DNA of 12,970 bases from Octopus sinensis (lineage: Eukaryota): positions 1-12,970 of the forward strand of contig NW_021826450.1 in assembly GCF_006345805.1 (NCBI RefSeq), in the 5' to 3' direction. Below the pieces are notes generated by a model that made no database searches, was not told the DNA's origin, and saw only the letters and a list, made by a program, of their open reading frames with translations. Of the stretch, positions 280 through 11,261 are shown piece after piece (position 1 is the stretch's first letter; the number at the start of each line of letters is the position of its first letter). The position numbers and the translations under genes are program-made.

Positions 280-409
280 CTTAGAGTTATTGGCGCAGCA
301 AAGAGATGAGGAGGAGGCTATAAATTCTGTCACTGAAGCTGTAGAGAAGGCTGGTAGGTGGCTTTGAATGAAGAGGACAGACCAGTGGTTTGCTACTATT
401 CGGATGCTG
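280..409 (+). pseudogene. Degenerate C-terminus of an RLE-type (Hero-like) non-LTR retrotransposon ORF
   Basis: Manual translation gives LRVIGAAKR (280-306), a frameshift, then AINSVTEAVEKAGRWL*MKRTDQW (317-388). This resembles the C-terminal motif I recall for Hero-clade ORFs (LGI.G..KRRAI....EAAEKA.RWLW.KR...W). Confidence 0.6.
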
Positions 410-540
410 ATTTTATCGACCACGAAAGGATGAAAGGCAAAGAGGACCTCGGCGGACTTTGAACTCAAAACGTAAAGACGAATGAAATGCCGTTTAGCAT
501 TTTACCCGGCGTGCTAACGATTTTGCCAGCTCGCTGCCTT
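410..540 (-). mobile_element. SINE family B, head and part of central domain (3' truncated)
   Basis: Homologous to 8500-8627. Minus strand starts GGCAGCGAGCTGGCAAAATCG (A-box-like), has B-box-like GAGTTCAAAGTCC, then GCCTTTCATCCTTTCG. Confidence 0.85.
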
Positions 541-2879: not shown

Positions 2880-2946
2880 TAACTCATAAAATCTTCAACG
2901 CCATATTTTAAATTATATAACGTTAAACCATGGGAGATTTCATATC
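2880..2946. repeat. Direct repeat copy 1 flanking Helitron copy 3
   Basis: Matches 3341-3407 with one mismatch (T2909/G3370). Last 2 nt overlap the Helitron TC. Confidence 0.95.
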
Positions 2947-3340
2947 TTTATATATAAAAGTAAGGTTGTGTGTCTGTCTCCTACGATTTAGATTCCTAAC
3001 TACTCCCACATTTTGCGGTTCAGTTTAACCAAAACCGGATATCTTATAGTCGTGATTCATATCGAGCCCTTCTGGGTATTAGCGCGCGTCTACGATGAGT
3101 CTACGATTTTAAAAATAATTTACCATCATTTTTTTCCATTTTAATGCATTTTTTCGCTATTATATAAGGGAAGTAACTCTCTAAAAATGTCTACGATGAG
3201 TCAACGATTTAAAAAAAAATTACCATCATTTTTTTTCCATTTTTAATGCATTTTTTGCTATTTTTTGGCTATAACTCTCTAAAAATGCTTATATAGTTAT
3301 TTCTCTTACAAACCCGAGCAACGCCGGGCGATACTGCTAG
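2945..3340 (+). mobile_element. Non-autonomous Helitron, copy 3 (396 bp)
   Basis: A|TC start, subterminal hairpin 3313-3328, CTAG|T end. Internal ~100-bp duplicated module starting GTCTACGATGAGTC (3088, 3189). Confidence 0.93.
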
Positions 3341-3407
3341 TAACTCATAAAATCTTCAACGCCATATTTGAAATTATATAACGTTAAACCATGGGAGATT
3401 TCATATC
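3341..3407. repeat. Direct repeat copy 2 flanking Helitron copy 3
   Basis: Matches 2880-2946 at offset 461. Confidence 0.95.
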
Positions 3408-4391: not shown

Positions 4392-4732
<341 letters not shown>

Positions 4733-4749
4733 AGACAGATAGATAGATA

Positions 4750-5010: not shown

Positions 5011-6133
5011 AGTTTCTTTATTGGCCACACAGGGCTGCACACAGATGGGACAAGTTACAAGGTAGAGCTTTTCTTTTGGGGGAGAAAAAAAAATGGTTGC
5101 GTAGGTTTTCGATCAAAAGGAATCGTAAAAGGGAAAAAGAACAAAAAAAAGAAAAAAAGGAAAAAAAAAAAAGAAAAAAAGGAAAAAAAAAAAAGAAAAA
5201 AGGGAAAAAATGAAAAGAAAAATGAAAAAAGAGGAAAAAAGGGGGAGAGGGAAAAAAACGATCAATAGGGATCGTGTATCACAGTGTCATGATGTATGGT
5301 GTAAAGGGGAAAGCAAGTAAGGTTTATCCGTGGGAAGAAAAGCCTACGAAAAAGACCACGGTAACCTTGGTCAATATTGTTATATGTTACCACATTTGTT
5401 TGCAAGTGGGTAACGCTCTGTTTTCAATTTCTGGGTTCATAGGATTATGCTCAAGGTGGCTTCGTCATTCATACGTGCCATCCTTGCTACATTCACCCAT
5501 CTTTTTTTAAAACATTCGCTAGACAAAACTTGCTTCTCTACTCTTACTTTCCTTTTCAAGTGGTACTTGAAGAAGTTGATGAGAGGTTGACCAGAGAGGA
5601 AAGTGTTTGTCTCCAATCCTTTCAGACGCGTCCACCAGATACATTCTTTCGCCATAGCCACAAGGATGATGAAAATAGCTCTTCCTTCCCGTTTGAAGGA
5701 AGGAGGCGTGACAATATTGACGATAGACTCAGCTGATAAACCGACTCGTCCCACACGTGACAGCAGTTGTTCGACATAAGCCCACAGGTCGGACACTGCA
5801 CGATTGCGTGCAGAACGGTTTCGTCGCTCTGACCGCATCTCGGGCAGATCGGCCCCATGTTTCTCGAGCCGTGTCTGTAGAGCTTATCCCGAACGGGTAA
5901 CGCTTCTCGGTAGCACTGCCAGGCCAGGGATCTCTGGAAGTTGTCCATGGGCCCTGGCCCGAAAGTCGTCCCGAACAGGCGGGTCAGGTATTCCTCGTCG
6001 ACGTCCAGGTTCGCCCCGAGCTCGTCGTCGTACCTCCCCTCCACTAATCCCCTATAGAATGCTTTGGTTGTGTTGAAGTCACTCAAGGTTGACCCAGGAC
6101 GACAGAGTTGCTTGAGAGCAACGCGACACTCGC
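5011..6133 (-). mobile_element. 5'-truncated non-LTR retrotransposon of L1/Tx1 type (about 1.12 kb)
   Basis: ORF2 C-terminus with CCHC zf-RVT motif, stop at 5437-5439, ~425-nt 3'UTR with U-rich tracts and AATAAA just before the end. GATA arrays at both junctions. Confidence 0.9.
5437..6133 (-). pseudogene. LINE ORF2 C-terminal fragment (zinc-binding zf-RVT region), frameshifted
   Basis: Frame open from the 5' junction: ECRVALKQL...LAWQCYREALPVRDKL...CPRCGQSDETVLHAIVQCP. One frameshift near 5790 leads into SDLWAYVEQLL...AKECIWWTR...FKKRW...SIIL*. Cx2C-ETxxH-x4-C and IWxxR are typical of L1/Tx1 ORF2. Confidence 0.88.
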
Positions 6134-6156
6134 AGATAGATAGGTAGGTAGGTATG

Positions 6157-6352: not shown

Positions 6353-6511
6353 AGTTTCTTTATTGGCCACACAGGGCTGCACACAGATGGGACAAGTTAC
6401 AAGGTAGAGCTTTTCTTTTGGGGATGAAGAGAACAAAAAACAAAAGAAAAAAAAACGGGGTGGCGTAGGTTTTCGATCAAGAGGGATCGTAAAAGGGAAG
6501 AAAAAAAGTGG
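6353..6511 (-). mobile_element. 5'-truncated 3'UTR stub of the same LINE
   Basis: 6353-6423 is identical to 5011-5081; downstream GCGTAGGTTTTCGATCAA..GG.ATCGTAAAAGGGAA is shared. Confidence 0.92.
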
Positions 6512-6974: not shown

Positions 6975-7140
6975 TGAACATTAATAAACGACCTAGAAAT
7001 AGTTATATGTTAAGGAGAAAGAAGGAAATACAATATTAACCATTGGCTATCAATGTTATAATTATTTCAACAAGAAGGGGAAACCACTCTGGAATATTTC
7101 GACCTTATTATAACCTCATCAGGTAACCTTAAAATTCACT
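6975..7140. repeat. 166-bp direct repeat copy 1 flanking SINE A
   Basis: Matches 7554-7719 (offset 579) with 3 substitutions (7025, 7029, 7034). Confidence 0.96.
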
Positions 7141-7555
7141 TTTTTTTTTTTTTTTTTACTTGTTTCAGTCATTTGACTGCGGCCATGCTGGAGCACCGCC
7201 TTCAGTCGAGCAAATCGACCCCGGGACTTATTCTTTGTAAGCCCAGTACTTATTCTATCGGTCTCTTTTGCCGAACCGCTAAGTGACGGGGACGTAAACA
7301 CACCAGCATCGGTTGTCAAGCAATGCTAGGGGAACAAACACAGACACACAAACATATACACACACATACATACATATATATATATATACATATATACGAC
7401 AGGCTTCTTTCAGTTTCCGTCTACCAAATCCACTCACAAGGTTTTGGTCGGCCCGAGGCTATAGCAGAAGACACTTGCCCAAGATGCCACGCAGTGGGAC
7501 TGAACCCGGAACCATGTGGTTGGTTAGCAAGCTACTTACCACACAGCCACTCCTG
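7141..7555 (-). mobile_element. SINE family A, near full length, poly(A) tail
   Basis: Minus strand: TGGCTGTGTGG (A box), GGGTTCAGTCCC (B-box-like), CORE-like CTTGGGCAAGT, internal microsatellite, 3' hairpin, A17 tail. Resembles octopus OR-type tRNA-derived SINEs (from memory). Confidence 0.93.
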
Positions 7556-7719
7556 AACATTAATAAACGACCTAGAAATAGTTATATGTTAAGGAGAAAG
7601 AAGAAAACACAACATTAACCATTGGCTATCAATGTTATAATTATTTCAACAAGAAGGGGAAACCACTCTGGAATATTTCGACCTTATTATAACCTCATCA
7701 GGTAACCTTAAAATTCACT
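7554..7719. repeat. 166-bp direct repeat copy 2 flanking SINE A
   Basis: Matches 6975-7140. Confidence 0.96.
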
Positions 7720-7790: not shown

Positions 7791-8740
7791 CTGATTGTTT
7801 TCATATCACTGTTGAAATACACTGCCTCTGTTTCGATTAATTTTGGAAATAATAAATTCTACTCTTGGCACAAGGCCTTGATAATTTTGGGGGAAGGGGA
7901 CTAGTCGATTACATCGACCCCAGTGCGTAACTGGTACTTATTTCATCGATCCCCGAAAGGATGAAAGGCAAAGTCGAGCTCGGCGGAATTTGAACTCAAA
8001 ACGTAGTAGCCGCTGAAATACCTATTTCTTTACTACCCACAAGGGGCTAAACACAGAGGAGACAAACAAGGACAGGCAAACGGATTAAGTCGATTATATC
8101 GACCCCAGTGCGTAACTGGTACTTATTTAATCGATCCCGAAAGGATGAAAGGCAAAGTCGAACTCGGCGGAATTTGAACTCAGAACGTAGCGGCAAACGA
8201 AATACCTATTTCTATTTCTTTACCACCAACAAGGGCCTAAACACAGGGAGGACAAACAAGGACAGACAAACGGATTAAGTCGATTATATCGACCCCAGTG
8301 CGTAACTGGTACTCATTCAATCGACCCCGAAAGGATAAAAGGCAAAGCCGACCTCGGCGGAATTTGAACTCAGAACGTAGTAGCCGCTGAAATACCTATT
8401 TCTTTATTACCCACAAAGGGCTAAACACAGAGGGGACAAACAAGGACAGACAAAGGGATTAAGTCGATTGTATCGACCCCAGTGCGTAACTGGTACTTAT
8501 TAAATCGATCCCGAAAGTATAAAGGCAAAATCGACCTCGGCGGAATTTGAACCCAGAACGTAACGGCAGACGAAATACGGCTACGAATTTCGCCCGGCGT
8601 GTTAACGTTTCTGCCAGCTCGCCACCCTCTAATTTTCGAAATAATGAAGAATCTAATAAAATAAACTTGTCATTATTGATTTGATGTTTGGAACATAAAC
8701 CAACATGAAATTTTGACAGAAGGTTTTAATCTAGATCACT
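7791..8740 (+). mobile_element. Degenerate TTAA-type MITE copy 1, interrupted by the SINE B tetramer
   Basis: 7791-7853 joined to 8646-8744 aligns with 8745-8824 joined to 10091-10156 (CTTGTCATTATT, TGTTTGGAACA, AATTTTGA..GAAG, TTTTAAT). Preceded by TTAA at 7787-7790. Confidence 0.6.
7854..8629 (-). mobile_element. SINE family B tetramer with one head, four cores and two tail types
   Basis: AGTCGATT recurs at 7903, 8088, 8278, 8462 (periods 185, 190, 184). Single A-box head at about 8580-8627. 16-bp TSD TAATTTT(G/C)GAAATAAT at 7838-7853 and 8630-8645. Confidence 0.92.
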
Positions 8741-9010
8741 TTAACCCTTTTGTTACAATATTTCTTTTTAAATATACCGACTTCGTTTTAATTCTGAAAA
8801 TAATGCAGAGCTTGTCATTATTAAGCCCTTAATGGATTATCCCGAGTTTACTCGTGCATCGCAAACGTATCTTTTTAGAACCAGACGAGTATACTCGGTC
8901 AAAATTAACTTTTAATTTTAACACCCAAACGAGTTTATTTGTTTTGTGTCGTTTCATTTTTGAGCAATTACGAATTTACTCACGTTGTTTTAAAAAAATG
9001 AGTATTTTTT

Positions 9011-9388
9011 TTTTTTCATTTGATGGATTTGGCCATCTGGAATGCTTATGTTTTGTATAAAGCATCTTTGGAAACTTCAGCTTCTGCTATGAAACCGCTG
9101 AAATTTAGGATGCAAACAATCACCAAGATTATTGAAAAATATAGGCCCTTATTGCCTCCCACGAAACCAGGAAGACCATCATCGATCCCACATTCAACAA
9201 GATTTGCCCCAGCTGGTCACTTTCCCATGGAAATACCACCAAGTGATAAGAAAAAGAACCCTACAAGATAGTGTGCAAAATGCGCAGAGAAGAGAGACGC
9301 TAAAGGAAAGAAGATTCGAAGAGAAAGCAGATACATGTGTGATGTCTGCAAGATAACTCTTTGTTTTAAAAATTATCATTCTAAATAA
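9011..9388 (+). pseudogene. piggyBac (PGBD4-like) transposase C-terminal remnant
   Basis: FFHLMDLAIWNAYVLYK...LKFRMQ...GHFP...NPTR*CAKC...RRESRYMCDVCKITLCFKNYH: end of the catalytic domain plus the Cys-rich domain, with an in-frame stop at 9269-9271. Confidence 0.9.
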
Positions 9389-9528
9389 ACTAGCTCATTT
9401 AAAAAAAATTTTCCTTCGATTTAAAAGCAATACATCTTATAAAAAACCGAAAATAGTTAAGTTATATGTATTTTTTCAATGTCCGAGTTAACTCGTTTAA
9501 ATCCAAATGAGTAAAAGTACATTTAAAA

Positions 9529-9942
9529 TCTTTATATATAAAAGTAAGGTTGTGTGCTGTCTGTCTCCTACGATTTAGATTCCTAACTACTCCCACATTT
9601 TGCGGCGCAGTTTAACCAAAACCGGGTATCTTATAGTCGTGATTCATATACCTTCTGGGTATTAGCGCGCATCTACGATGAGTCTACGACTTAAAAAATA
9701 ATTTACCATCAATTTTTCCCATTTTTAATGCATTTTTGGCATATATAAGGGCATATATAATATAATATAAGGGCATATATAATAAAAATTTATTATTAAA
9801 TCTCAGGACGTAAAAAACTACAGTAACACCCCCCACATTTGTGGTTAGCCATATTGAGATGGCTATTATACTTTACATCTTTAAAAATGCTTATATAGTT
9901 ATTTCCCTTACAAACCCGAGCAACGCCGGGCGATACTGCTAG
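9529..9942 (+). mobile_element. Non-autonomous Helitron, copy 4 (414 bp variant) nested in the piggyBac
   Basis: A|TC start, same 5' ~210 bp and 3' ~60 bp as copy 3, CTAG|T end, no TSD. Different middle at about 9752-9880. Confidence 0.92.
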
Positions 9943-10246
9943 TTCTATAATAAATAAATAAAGGAAACAAGATAAAAAAAACCCACTTTTTTTTGTAATT
10001 AACACAGTGTATATAATTAAAAAAGGAAATTAGAAAATATGCTCTGAAATGAAAGGCCATGTCAAAATAATTGATCCATTCAGGGGTTAAGCTGGTGTTT
10101 GGAACAGAGATTAAGATGGAATTTTGATGGAAGTTTTAATTTAAAACCCTTTTAAACAGGGAGTTGGAATCGTAGAGCCAGGGAGAGTCCCAGGTGGGTT
10201 GGTATAAAAACAGACATAATATCAAAAGACTTGGTATGAAAAGAGA

Positions 10247-10662
10247 CTTTTTTCTCTTTTTCTCTTTTACTCTTTTACTTGTTTCAGTCATTTGAATGCG
10301 GCCATACTGGAGCACAGCCTTTAGTCGAGCAAATCGACCCCGGGACTTATTCTTTGTAAGCCCAGTACTTATTCTATCGGTCTCTTTTGCCGAACCGCTA
10401 AGTAACGGGGACGTAAACACACCAGCATCGGTTGTCAAGCAATGCTAAGGGTACAAACACAGACACACAAACATATACACACACATACATATATATATAT
10501 ACGACGGGCTTCTTTCAGTTTCCGTCTACCAAATCCACTCACAAGGCTTTGGTCGGCCCGAGGCTATAGCAGAAGACACTTGCCCAAGGTGCCACGCCGT
10601 GGGACTGAACCCGGAACCATGTGGTTGGTAAGCAAGCTACTTACCACAGCCACTCCTGCGCC
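10247..10662 (-). mobile_element. SINE family A, full length
   Basis: Highly similar to 7158-7555; 5' end GGCGCAGGAGTGGCTGTGG; tail of GAGTAAAA/GAGAAAAA repeats. No clear TSD seen. Confidence 0.93.
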
Positions 10663-10846
10663 TATTTCTATTAATACTGGGTTCTGAGAATTCTTGTTGT
10701 TTGTTGTTGCTGTACGAACGACATTCCAAAAGTGGCAAATACTCCTGGGAAGCACCTGAACATCAAAATAAACTACATCCACCTACATGAAGTATTGCTT
10801 TGCTTCACGTTTTGTGTCAAGCCGAAAGCATAGGCAAATATGCTTA

Positions 10847-10919: not shown

Positions 10920-10931
10920 GACTCACAAAAT

Positions 10932-11261
10932 CACACCTACACTCAAGAACCACGCCCACCTTCACACCTACACTCAAGAACCATGTCCTCCACCTTCACA
11001 CCTACACACAAAAACCACGCCCACCTTCACACCTACACTCAAGAACCACACCCACCTTCATACCTACACTCGAGAACCACGCCCACCTTCATACTTACAC
11101 TCAAGAACCACGCCCACCTTGGCACCTACACTCAAGAACCATGCCCACCTTCACACCTACACTCAAGAACCACGCCACCTTCACACCTACACTCAAGAAC
11201 CACGCCCACCTTCACACCTACACTCAATAACCACGCCCACCTTCATACCTACATTCAAGAA
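10932..11261. repeat. 31-bp minisatellite, about 10.6 copies
   Basis: Unit CACACCTACACTCAAGAACCACGCCCACCTT starting at 10932, 10963, 10997, 11028, 11059, 11090, 11121, 11152, 11182, 11213, 11244; a decayed copy near 11370. Confidence 0.95.

Follow-up and report, generated by a model that had tools for sequence, protein, structure and literature searches.

The window that we analysed, a stretch of 12,970 nucleotides of Octopus sinensis (NCBI RefSeq assembly GCF_006345805.1, contig NW_021826450.1), carries on its minus strand, from 8629 to 7854, an element consisting of one head and four units of B box plus core (Table 1). The units form an array with a period of 184 nt, 3.6 copies and 87% matches, and a single 16-bp target site duplication (TSD), 15 of 16 letters identical, encloses the whole, just as a sequence-only reading of the same DNA had proposed. 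In its workings the element is like a SINE-derived tandem multimer; its anatomy is real, and the earlier drawing of it was correct except for the position of the join.

Table 1. Features of the multimer, its surroundings and the related LINE and SINE copies in the window.
Feature	Position	Strand	Remarks
TSD, 5' copy	8630..8645		15/16 identical to 7838-7853; site-specific letter versus host repeat family
Sole SINE head, A-box-like region	8580..8629	-	aligns with second copy at 380-545
Unit 1 body: remaining tRNA-like region, B-box-like 8-mer (8545-8552), conserved central domain	8463..8579	-	
Unit 1 LINE-like tail	8397..8462	-	41/50 columns versus LINE 3' end at 5013-5062
Unit 2, headless	8207..8396	-	body 8396-8278; LINE-like tail 8277-8207 with 6 extra nt
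Complex variant block in unit 2	8380..8388	-	
Unit 3, headless	8023..8206	-	body 8206-8088; LINE-like tail 8087-8023
Unit 4 body, headless	7903..8022	-	variant block of unit 2 also present at 8006-8014
Terminal tail, other common type	7854..7902	-	ATT-like repeats at end, running into TSD
TSD, 3' copy	7838..7853		15/16 identical to 5' copy
Host of insertion: older multi-copy repeat	8646..8790		many divergent contigs and reads, all four runs
L1-group LINE, 5'-truncated, frameshifted: ORF2 end with zf-RVT plus 3' UTR	5013..6134	-	inside GATA arrays
Short 3' fragment of the LINE at 5013..6134	4584..4735	-	in GATA array
Short 3' fragment of the LINE at 5013..6134	6355..6510	-	in GATA array
Older monomer of this SINE, third kind of 3' part	380..540	-	77% over 128 nt

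The stretch 8370-8800 (431 nt with head, unit 1, first join and flank) was compared with public runs. Of the 24 runs listed, 4 were used, namely contigs of the organisms A (X1), B (X2) and E (X12) and raw RNA reads of E (X23), whereas X19 and X20, with small shares and labelled insect metagenome, were left out. About 76% of X2 and about 6% of X23 were read, the counts for X1 and X2 are incomplete, and X1, which may come from the window's own source, is not independent. The contigs aligned to the stretch numbered 228,279, 172,774 and 74,490, host repeat included; the rows used were the best 24 of 2315 for loose ends, 15 of 309 for joints and 40 of 615 for letters. Contig depth gives no copy number, and letter shares are biased to the reference.

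A TSD match of 15 letters was reached by none of 284 random flank pairs. At the ninth TSD place both copies show G, whereas A makes up 76-89% of the depth there in the host repeat family; the two copies therefore represent a true duplication of this site. We take the head at 8580-8629 to hold an A-box-like region, read by eye. The B-box-like 8-mer stands in register in all four units and nowhere else in the window; taken by itself, a count of four lies within chance (35 of 200 shuffles), and a stricter 9-letter B-box motif had no match. ARAGORN reported no tRNA gene, and Rfam revealed no tRNA match, its one hit lying at chance level (E 6.9). The central domain is presumably the Meta domain. 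In the runs, the 5' ends of the family clip at 8623-8626, and at the head 1099, 736 and 777 contigs run out into flanks of heterogeneous sequence; the element thus displays the features of a high-copy, interspersed, non-coding SINE with TSD, and 8629-7854 is likely an old insertion of an octopus-type SINE. Reads of the RNA run X23 cover both strands at equal depth and revealed no fixed ends.

The three 5' units had been described as ending in a LINE-like tail. For units 1 and 3 this is clear, as none of 2000 shuffles compared as well with the 3' end of the LINE as their tails do (41 of 50 columns for unit 1); the match of the unit 2 tail is weak (24 of 2000 shuffles). That the tail of the last unit is unrelated was confirmed: it shows no homology to the LINE end, with only a 10-nt match that 86 of 2000 shuffles equalled, and a 3' tail shared with the LINE was accordingly found for the inner tails only. 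In each of the four runs the loose ends at 8462 have the last-tail type as their consensus (654, 516 and 645 contigs; 1663 reads), and one SINE body carries two common tail types. Folding revealed no conserved tail stem (z of -2.07 for the unit 1 tail, 0.71 for the unit 3 tail, 1.46 for the LINE end and 0.48 for the last tail), and the heads folded no better than shuffles (z of -0.68 and -0.90).

The SINE tails are only 76-83% like the LINE of the window; the LINE at 5013-6134 likely represents the tail donor's family or a relative. Named relatives of this remnant come from Argonauta and Octopus, and longer ones display RVT_1 together with zf-RVT. One of them (P0008) is nearer to L1 ORF2p (E 1e-50) than to R2 (1e-24), and a distant relative has an APE-type endonuclease. 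A protein labelled as coming from a bacterial MAG (P0006) is 65% identical to the remnant and is likely host DNA within that MAG. Between 4392 and 6733, one 1.1-kb and two 3' LINE pieces of about 150 bp lie in one orientation with GATA arrays between them. All three LINE 3' ends of the window sit in GATA arrays, and the L1-group LINE is likely a GATA-targeting family, though the three pieces may not be independent.

The window, animal DNA rich in repeats, holds more of them. A second family of SINEs contains a (TA)/(CA) microsatellite and occurs at 26-269, 1060-1330, 7141-7553 and 10259-10665, three of its copies being 91-95% alike over about 240 nt. The copy at 7141-7553, with a long T-run end, is flanked by a 166-bp direct repeat (6975-7140 and 7554-7719, 163 of 166 identical), which represents either a target duplication of unusual length or a duplication that arose locally at the insertion. 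At 10661-10672, before the head of the second SINE, 10 letters resemble the end of the unit 2 tail without the rest of it, likely by chance. Non-coding repeat copies, some of them inverted, lie at 1834-2750, 2945-3341 and 9527-9946 and end in a GC-rich hairpin and CTAG; we assume them to be a non-autonomous Helitron-type element. A decayed reading frame at 9040-9390 with one internal stop ends in a cysteine-rich motif, which we take to be like the C-terminus of piggyBac transposases, and a 31-bp minisatellite (10.6 copies, 89% matches) is found at 10931-11261.

All three joins between a tail and the following unit enter at one common point. This agrees with the sequence-only reading, whose mark was nevertheless slightly off: the tail ends at 8397, the modal loose-end place in X1, X2 and X23, and the join ...AAAGAAATA|GGTATTTC therefore lies 2 nt upstream of it. 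The same reading had likened the junction TATTT to the TATCT of the LINE junction. This likeness proved weak, as SINE joins and LINE junctions agree at 4-5 of the 12 letters that follow the shared AAAGAAA; TATTT/TATCT was rejected as a common target on these 4-5 of 12 letters, and at the junctions of the window the SINE does not share the target of the LINE. No microhomology was found beside either of the two entry points into the head (8579 and 8612), so plain slippage within one SINE cannot have founded the join. A simple internal duplication of one SINE was rejected, the inner and last tails being not homologous, and since the join needs two tail types, a founding insertion or a template switch is required. 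The insertion proposed earlier may describe this first event. Two short resemblances were noticed by eye: 7 nt of the TSD are like the join target, and 7 nt of the variant block match the head in reverse complement.

In the runs, 828 contigs of A and 603 of B clip at 8578 with mainly tail letters (agreement 0.53-0.56). By a rough split with assumed tail-end depths, the join accounts for 0.24-0.64 of the tail-end depth in A, 0.32-0.78 in B and 0.01-0.27 in E. A strong enrichment of the join behind the tail, proposed earlier as the check on self-insertion, is thus present in A and B, at roughly a quarter or more of the depth. In the DNA of E, 2 joint contigs occur among the matches listed, though this organism has both tail and target, and in its RNA (about 6% of X23) the join was seen in 43 of about 4,390 tail-end reads (about 1%). 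Past 8397, 697 contigs of X1 and 467 of X2 enter long heterogeneous AT-rich DNA (agreement 0.38-0.39), an example being X2 record 18 with 1,275 nt. LINE-tailed copies are therefore dispersed and not confined to SINE heads. Insertion by a target-specific endonuclease, as put forward earlier, finds no support in these contigs or in the join's share of about 1% of E's tail-end RNA reads, and strict specificity was rejected. The tail-end flanks show a faint 2-letter period by eye, and as contigs collapse microsatellite flanks, a GATA/TA share is possible.

Besides the simple join, the tail is followed by 5 target nucleotides and a full head at one fixed break in at least 12 contigs of X1 and at least 9 of X2, and in none of X12 among the matches listed. 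A second entry point into the head, at 8612 (period 216), was found in all three organisms (at least 2, 1 and 2 contigs), and both entry points come after a T-purine-G-C word. The first letters of the 8612 join repeat the last word of the tail. In E's RNA this join was present in 879 reads (20% of the tail-end depth) versus 43 for the first join, and these reads may stem from one expressed locus. Single variant joins reached a depth of 357-895 against 35-50 for long single contigs, by which identical joins look multi-copy. Hundreds of join variants occur in A and B, and contigs cannot separate many loci from few long arrays. A second complete multimer was not seen, and among the matches listed no contig spans even the 431-nt stretch. 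Pattern scans for the element returned nothing in viral contigs and in genome contigs. In metagenome contigs they returned nothing and then one locus (L001, 1858-2069), a different tRNA-headed SINE with only the central domain in common (43 of 51 columns, of which about 20 are fixed by the search pattern). An internally shortened form of the SINE (8552-8599, with 12 nt in place of 46) occurs among the matches listed for E, in 1 DNA contig and in about 490 of the RNA reads.

The relation of head and units to each other was read from their letters. The letters at 8579 and 8584 differ between the head and the joins, and the head represents a family variant. This variant dominates the depth in A and B, where the other letter has 15-30%, and holds little of it in E, where the other letter has 67-97%; these shares lean to the reference. 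In A and B, the rise of the head variant is accompanied by that of the tail variants and of the join. All three joins read GG where the head reads CG; the head consequently belongs with unit 1 and is not the untouched upstream half of a cut resident. The last unit had been expected to be older than the others. Private changes counted by eye came to 6, 4, 2 and 4 per body for units 1 to 4 (p 0.57 for one age, with low power), which does not bear this out, and the TSD, with 1 mismatch in 16, also fits one age.

In the first 17 columns unit 4 shows no difference to unit 2 and 6-7 to units 1 and 3. Units 2 and 4 have a block of 5-7 letters in common and nothing derived in common beyond the first 17 nt, while units 1 and 3 agree in a variant that no more than 13-23% of the family carries; at this variant, the form of unit 4 can be read as a separate insertion. 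Such an alternation of units 1/3 and 2/4 has a chance of 0.0002-0.003 under independent draws with upper-bound family shares, and few active sources would raise it. The tails break the alternation, units 2 and 3 agreeing at 2 places against unit 1. Together with the behaviour of units 2 and 4 beyond 17 nt, this makes the array a mosaic and not a clean dimer duplication. At the position equivalent to 8471, unit 4 also has the letter of the other type. Within the variant block, the share of non-A letters at 8387 is 9% in X1, 16% in X2 and 0% in X12, third letters not being separated.

In our preferred reading, to which we give a probability of about 0.5, the founder join goes back to one or a few events, and read-through retroposition and unequal exchange then spread it in the form of ready-made multimers. 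At first, a LINE-tailed monomer would have been linked to the interior of an ordinary-tailed copy, by one insertion into its head or by one template switch. From the sole head polymerase III would then read through the units, whose majority sequence has no run of four T, and the last tail would prime insertion at ATT-rich sites, leaving one TSD round the whole multimer. Either in the source array or once inserted, the units may have exchanged unequally or converted one another, which would have altered their number and shuffled the markers. Ready-made copying is favoured by the lineage skew, the multi-copy join variants, the mismatch of the head, the equal ages and the alternating markers. The copy at 8629-7854 itself is probably dead judging by its letters, as three private changes, each in one unit, each create a T4 run, the only three on the element strand. 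Against copying of a founder stand the failure to see a second complete multimer in the runs, the contigs with tail, 5 nt and full head at a fixed break (at least 12 and 9), which fit repeated full-length insertion with a short TSD, the second entry point at 8612 in three organisms, and the mosaic array, in which the sharing of units 2 and 4 ends at 17 nt and the tails fall off the alternation.

The last three of these observations speak for recurrent insertion of the SINE into its own kind, the idea of the sequence-only reading eased from strict specificity to a preference, which we regard as possible at clearly less than even odds. The partner endonuclease would nick the SINE head or the join at one or two sites, and the new cDNA would anneal to a homologous overhang or head, adding one headless unit per event. 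The strong enrichment of one join in A and B, the fixed-break contigs (at least 12 and 9) and two entry points with similar upstream words agree with this, as do the 6 extra nt at the end of the unit 2 tail, which tail slippage would give. The star-like, mosaic units, with a sharing of units 2 and 4 limited to about one TSD length, the other type's letter in unit 4 and the LINE's own ends, three of three in one target, point the same way. A precedent exists in SINEU, which is moved by Tx1 and shows target preference and sequential tandem insertion in the available text of PMC4494074. With such known Tx1-moved, target-preferring SINEs, the join enrichment and an L1-group tail donor, the mechanism proposed earlier finds partial support, while the junction likeness and the older last unit that it also called for were not borne out. 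Recurrent insertion is further opposed by the 697 and 467 LINE-tailed contigs that end in heterogeneous DNA (agreement 0.38-0.39), by the scarcity of the join in E, by the mere 4-5 of 12 letters in common with the LINE target and by a tail only 76-83% like the LINE of the window, as well as by the head variant, which is unlike the joins unless cDNA replaces the head. Spelled out in full, the proposal is that an L1/Tx1-type endonuclease directs the LINE-tailed form of an octopod SINE to one or two places within the SINE's own head, so that retrotransposition seeds a satellite at a site that depends on the lineage; this is tentative, and we hold it a little more loosely still.

Two other explanations fit worse than either the copying of a founder or recurrent insertion. 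Purely local growth, by which a two-unit insertion became four through unequal exchange at the DNA level and most joins lie in few long satellite arrays, would account for the alternating markers and the one TSD, and unequal recombination is the model published for SINE-derived satellites and for clam arrays, as given in the available parts of PMC10702118 and PMC11481361. We consider it unlikely: for unit 3 to have a start of the unit 1 type, an exchange must have fallen no more than 8 nt from the join or the ancestral array must have been longer, the tails are not clustered as local duplication predicts, and a dispersed join-bearing founder is still required. Yet more doubtful is a single event of template jumping, in which reverse transcription begins on an RNA with the ordinary tail, halts at one set position of the structured head and jumps several times to the 3' ends of LINE-tailed RNAs. 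Such jumping is known from R2 biochemistry, and it would yield one TSD, equal ages, a head belonging to unit 1 and joins without microhomology; by eye, a short possible stem has the join at its 5' base. The inner joins all read GG and not the CG of unit 1's head variant, though, the join is skewed between lineages, no fixed RNA start or end was detected, and the head folds no better than shuffles (z -0.68).

In the Octopus vulgaris assembly, SINEs make up 11.6%, and 893 of the 900 SINE families with recent activity have no classification (PMC13282606, available text), so a correct modular SINE model would tidy octopus annotation. The clam and reptile papers invoke unequal recombination for SINE-derived repeats (PMC11481361; PMC10702118, in the parts available) and leave open the origin of equal unit boundaries at many loci. 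With two tail types and scoreable head and tail variants, the copying of a founder and recurrent self-insertion make different, countable predictions in octopus assemblies. If the former is true, the array is a well-marked but ordinary example; if the latter, it reveals a new route from retrotransposon to satellite.

Our literature search, whose range did not include most subscription papers, the octopus genome paper of 2015, Ohshima and Okada 1994, Repbase, SINEBase and the Zenodo library of PMC13282606, found no account of the octopus array, which may be catalogued there, nor of any SINE that targets its own head. The available text of PMC13282606 describes no such arrays. The layout of the octopus array is already published for clam and reptiles, while the two-tail make-up was not found in print. 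Blood clam Scapharca broughtonii shows TSD1-(SINE)n-TSD1 arrays of 4-15 units (PMC11481361, available text), which have in common with the octopus multimer one TSD, a full head first, the same head truncation in the units after it and a complete last tail. The inner tails differ: in Scapharca they are truncated and of the same family, while octopus has complete inner tails of another type, which are related to a LINE and not to the last tail.

Among squamates, the sSat3Ati2 unit of 179 nt comprises head end, body and LINE-derived region, mostly in 4-5 units, and snake sSat3 holds B box and body; alternating subvariants have been described for SINE-derived satellites as well (PMC10702118, available text). 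As in the octopus multimer, their units start inside the head and keep the B box, with extended terminal units, alternating subvariants and lineage-specific variants; tandem units of a partial SINE with longer terminal unit(s), which define an sSat, are also what the octopus multimer displays. The squamate satellites show fixed boundaries at many loci, the octopus hundreds of join variants in contigs. Long homogenised arrays and a subtelomeric bias also mark this class of satellite. Their units derive from one SINE, and two tail types are not described in the available text of that paper.

MetaSINE or MESC-type SINEs have a conserved central domain and exchangeable tails, the MetaSINE superfamily with a 66-bp Meta domain directly behind the head (PMC4824008; PMC4758252, in the parts available). 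Similarly, the octopus element has a tRNA-like head followed at once by the central domain that L001 also has, with several tails on one body. For the self-insertion reading, the nearest system is crocodilian SINEU/Tx1-Mar, a SINE tied to Tx1 with a graded preference of 13-90% for a site in another repeat and with tandem insertions (PMC4494074, available text). Measured by a SINEU-type flank threshold of more than 20% of one type, the octopus join comes to a rough 0.24-0.78 in A and B and 0.01-0.27 in E. The independence of SINEU insertions was shown by 5'-truncated copies, and its target is shared with the LINE, unlike at the octopus junctions of the window. Finally, the target of SINEU is a DNA transposon, whereas the candidate target in octopus is the SINE itself.
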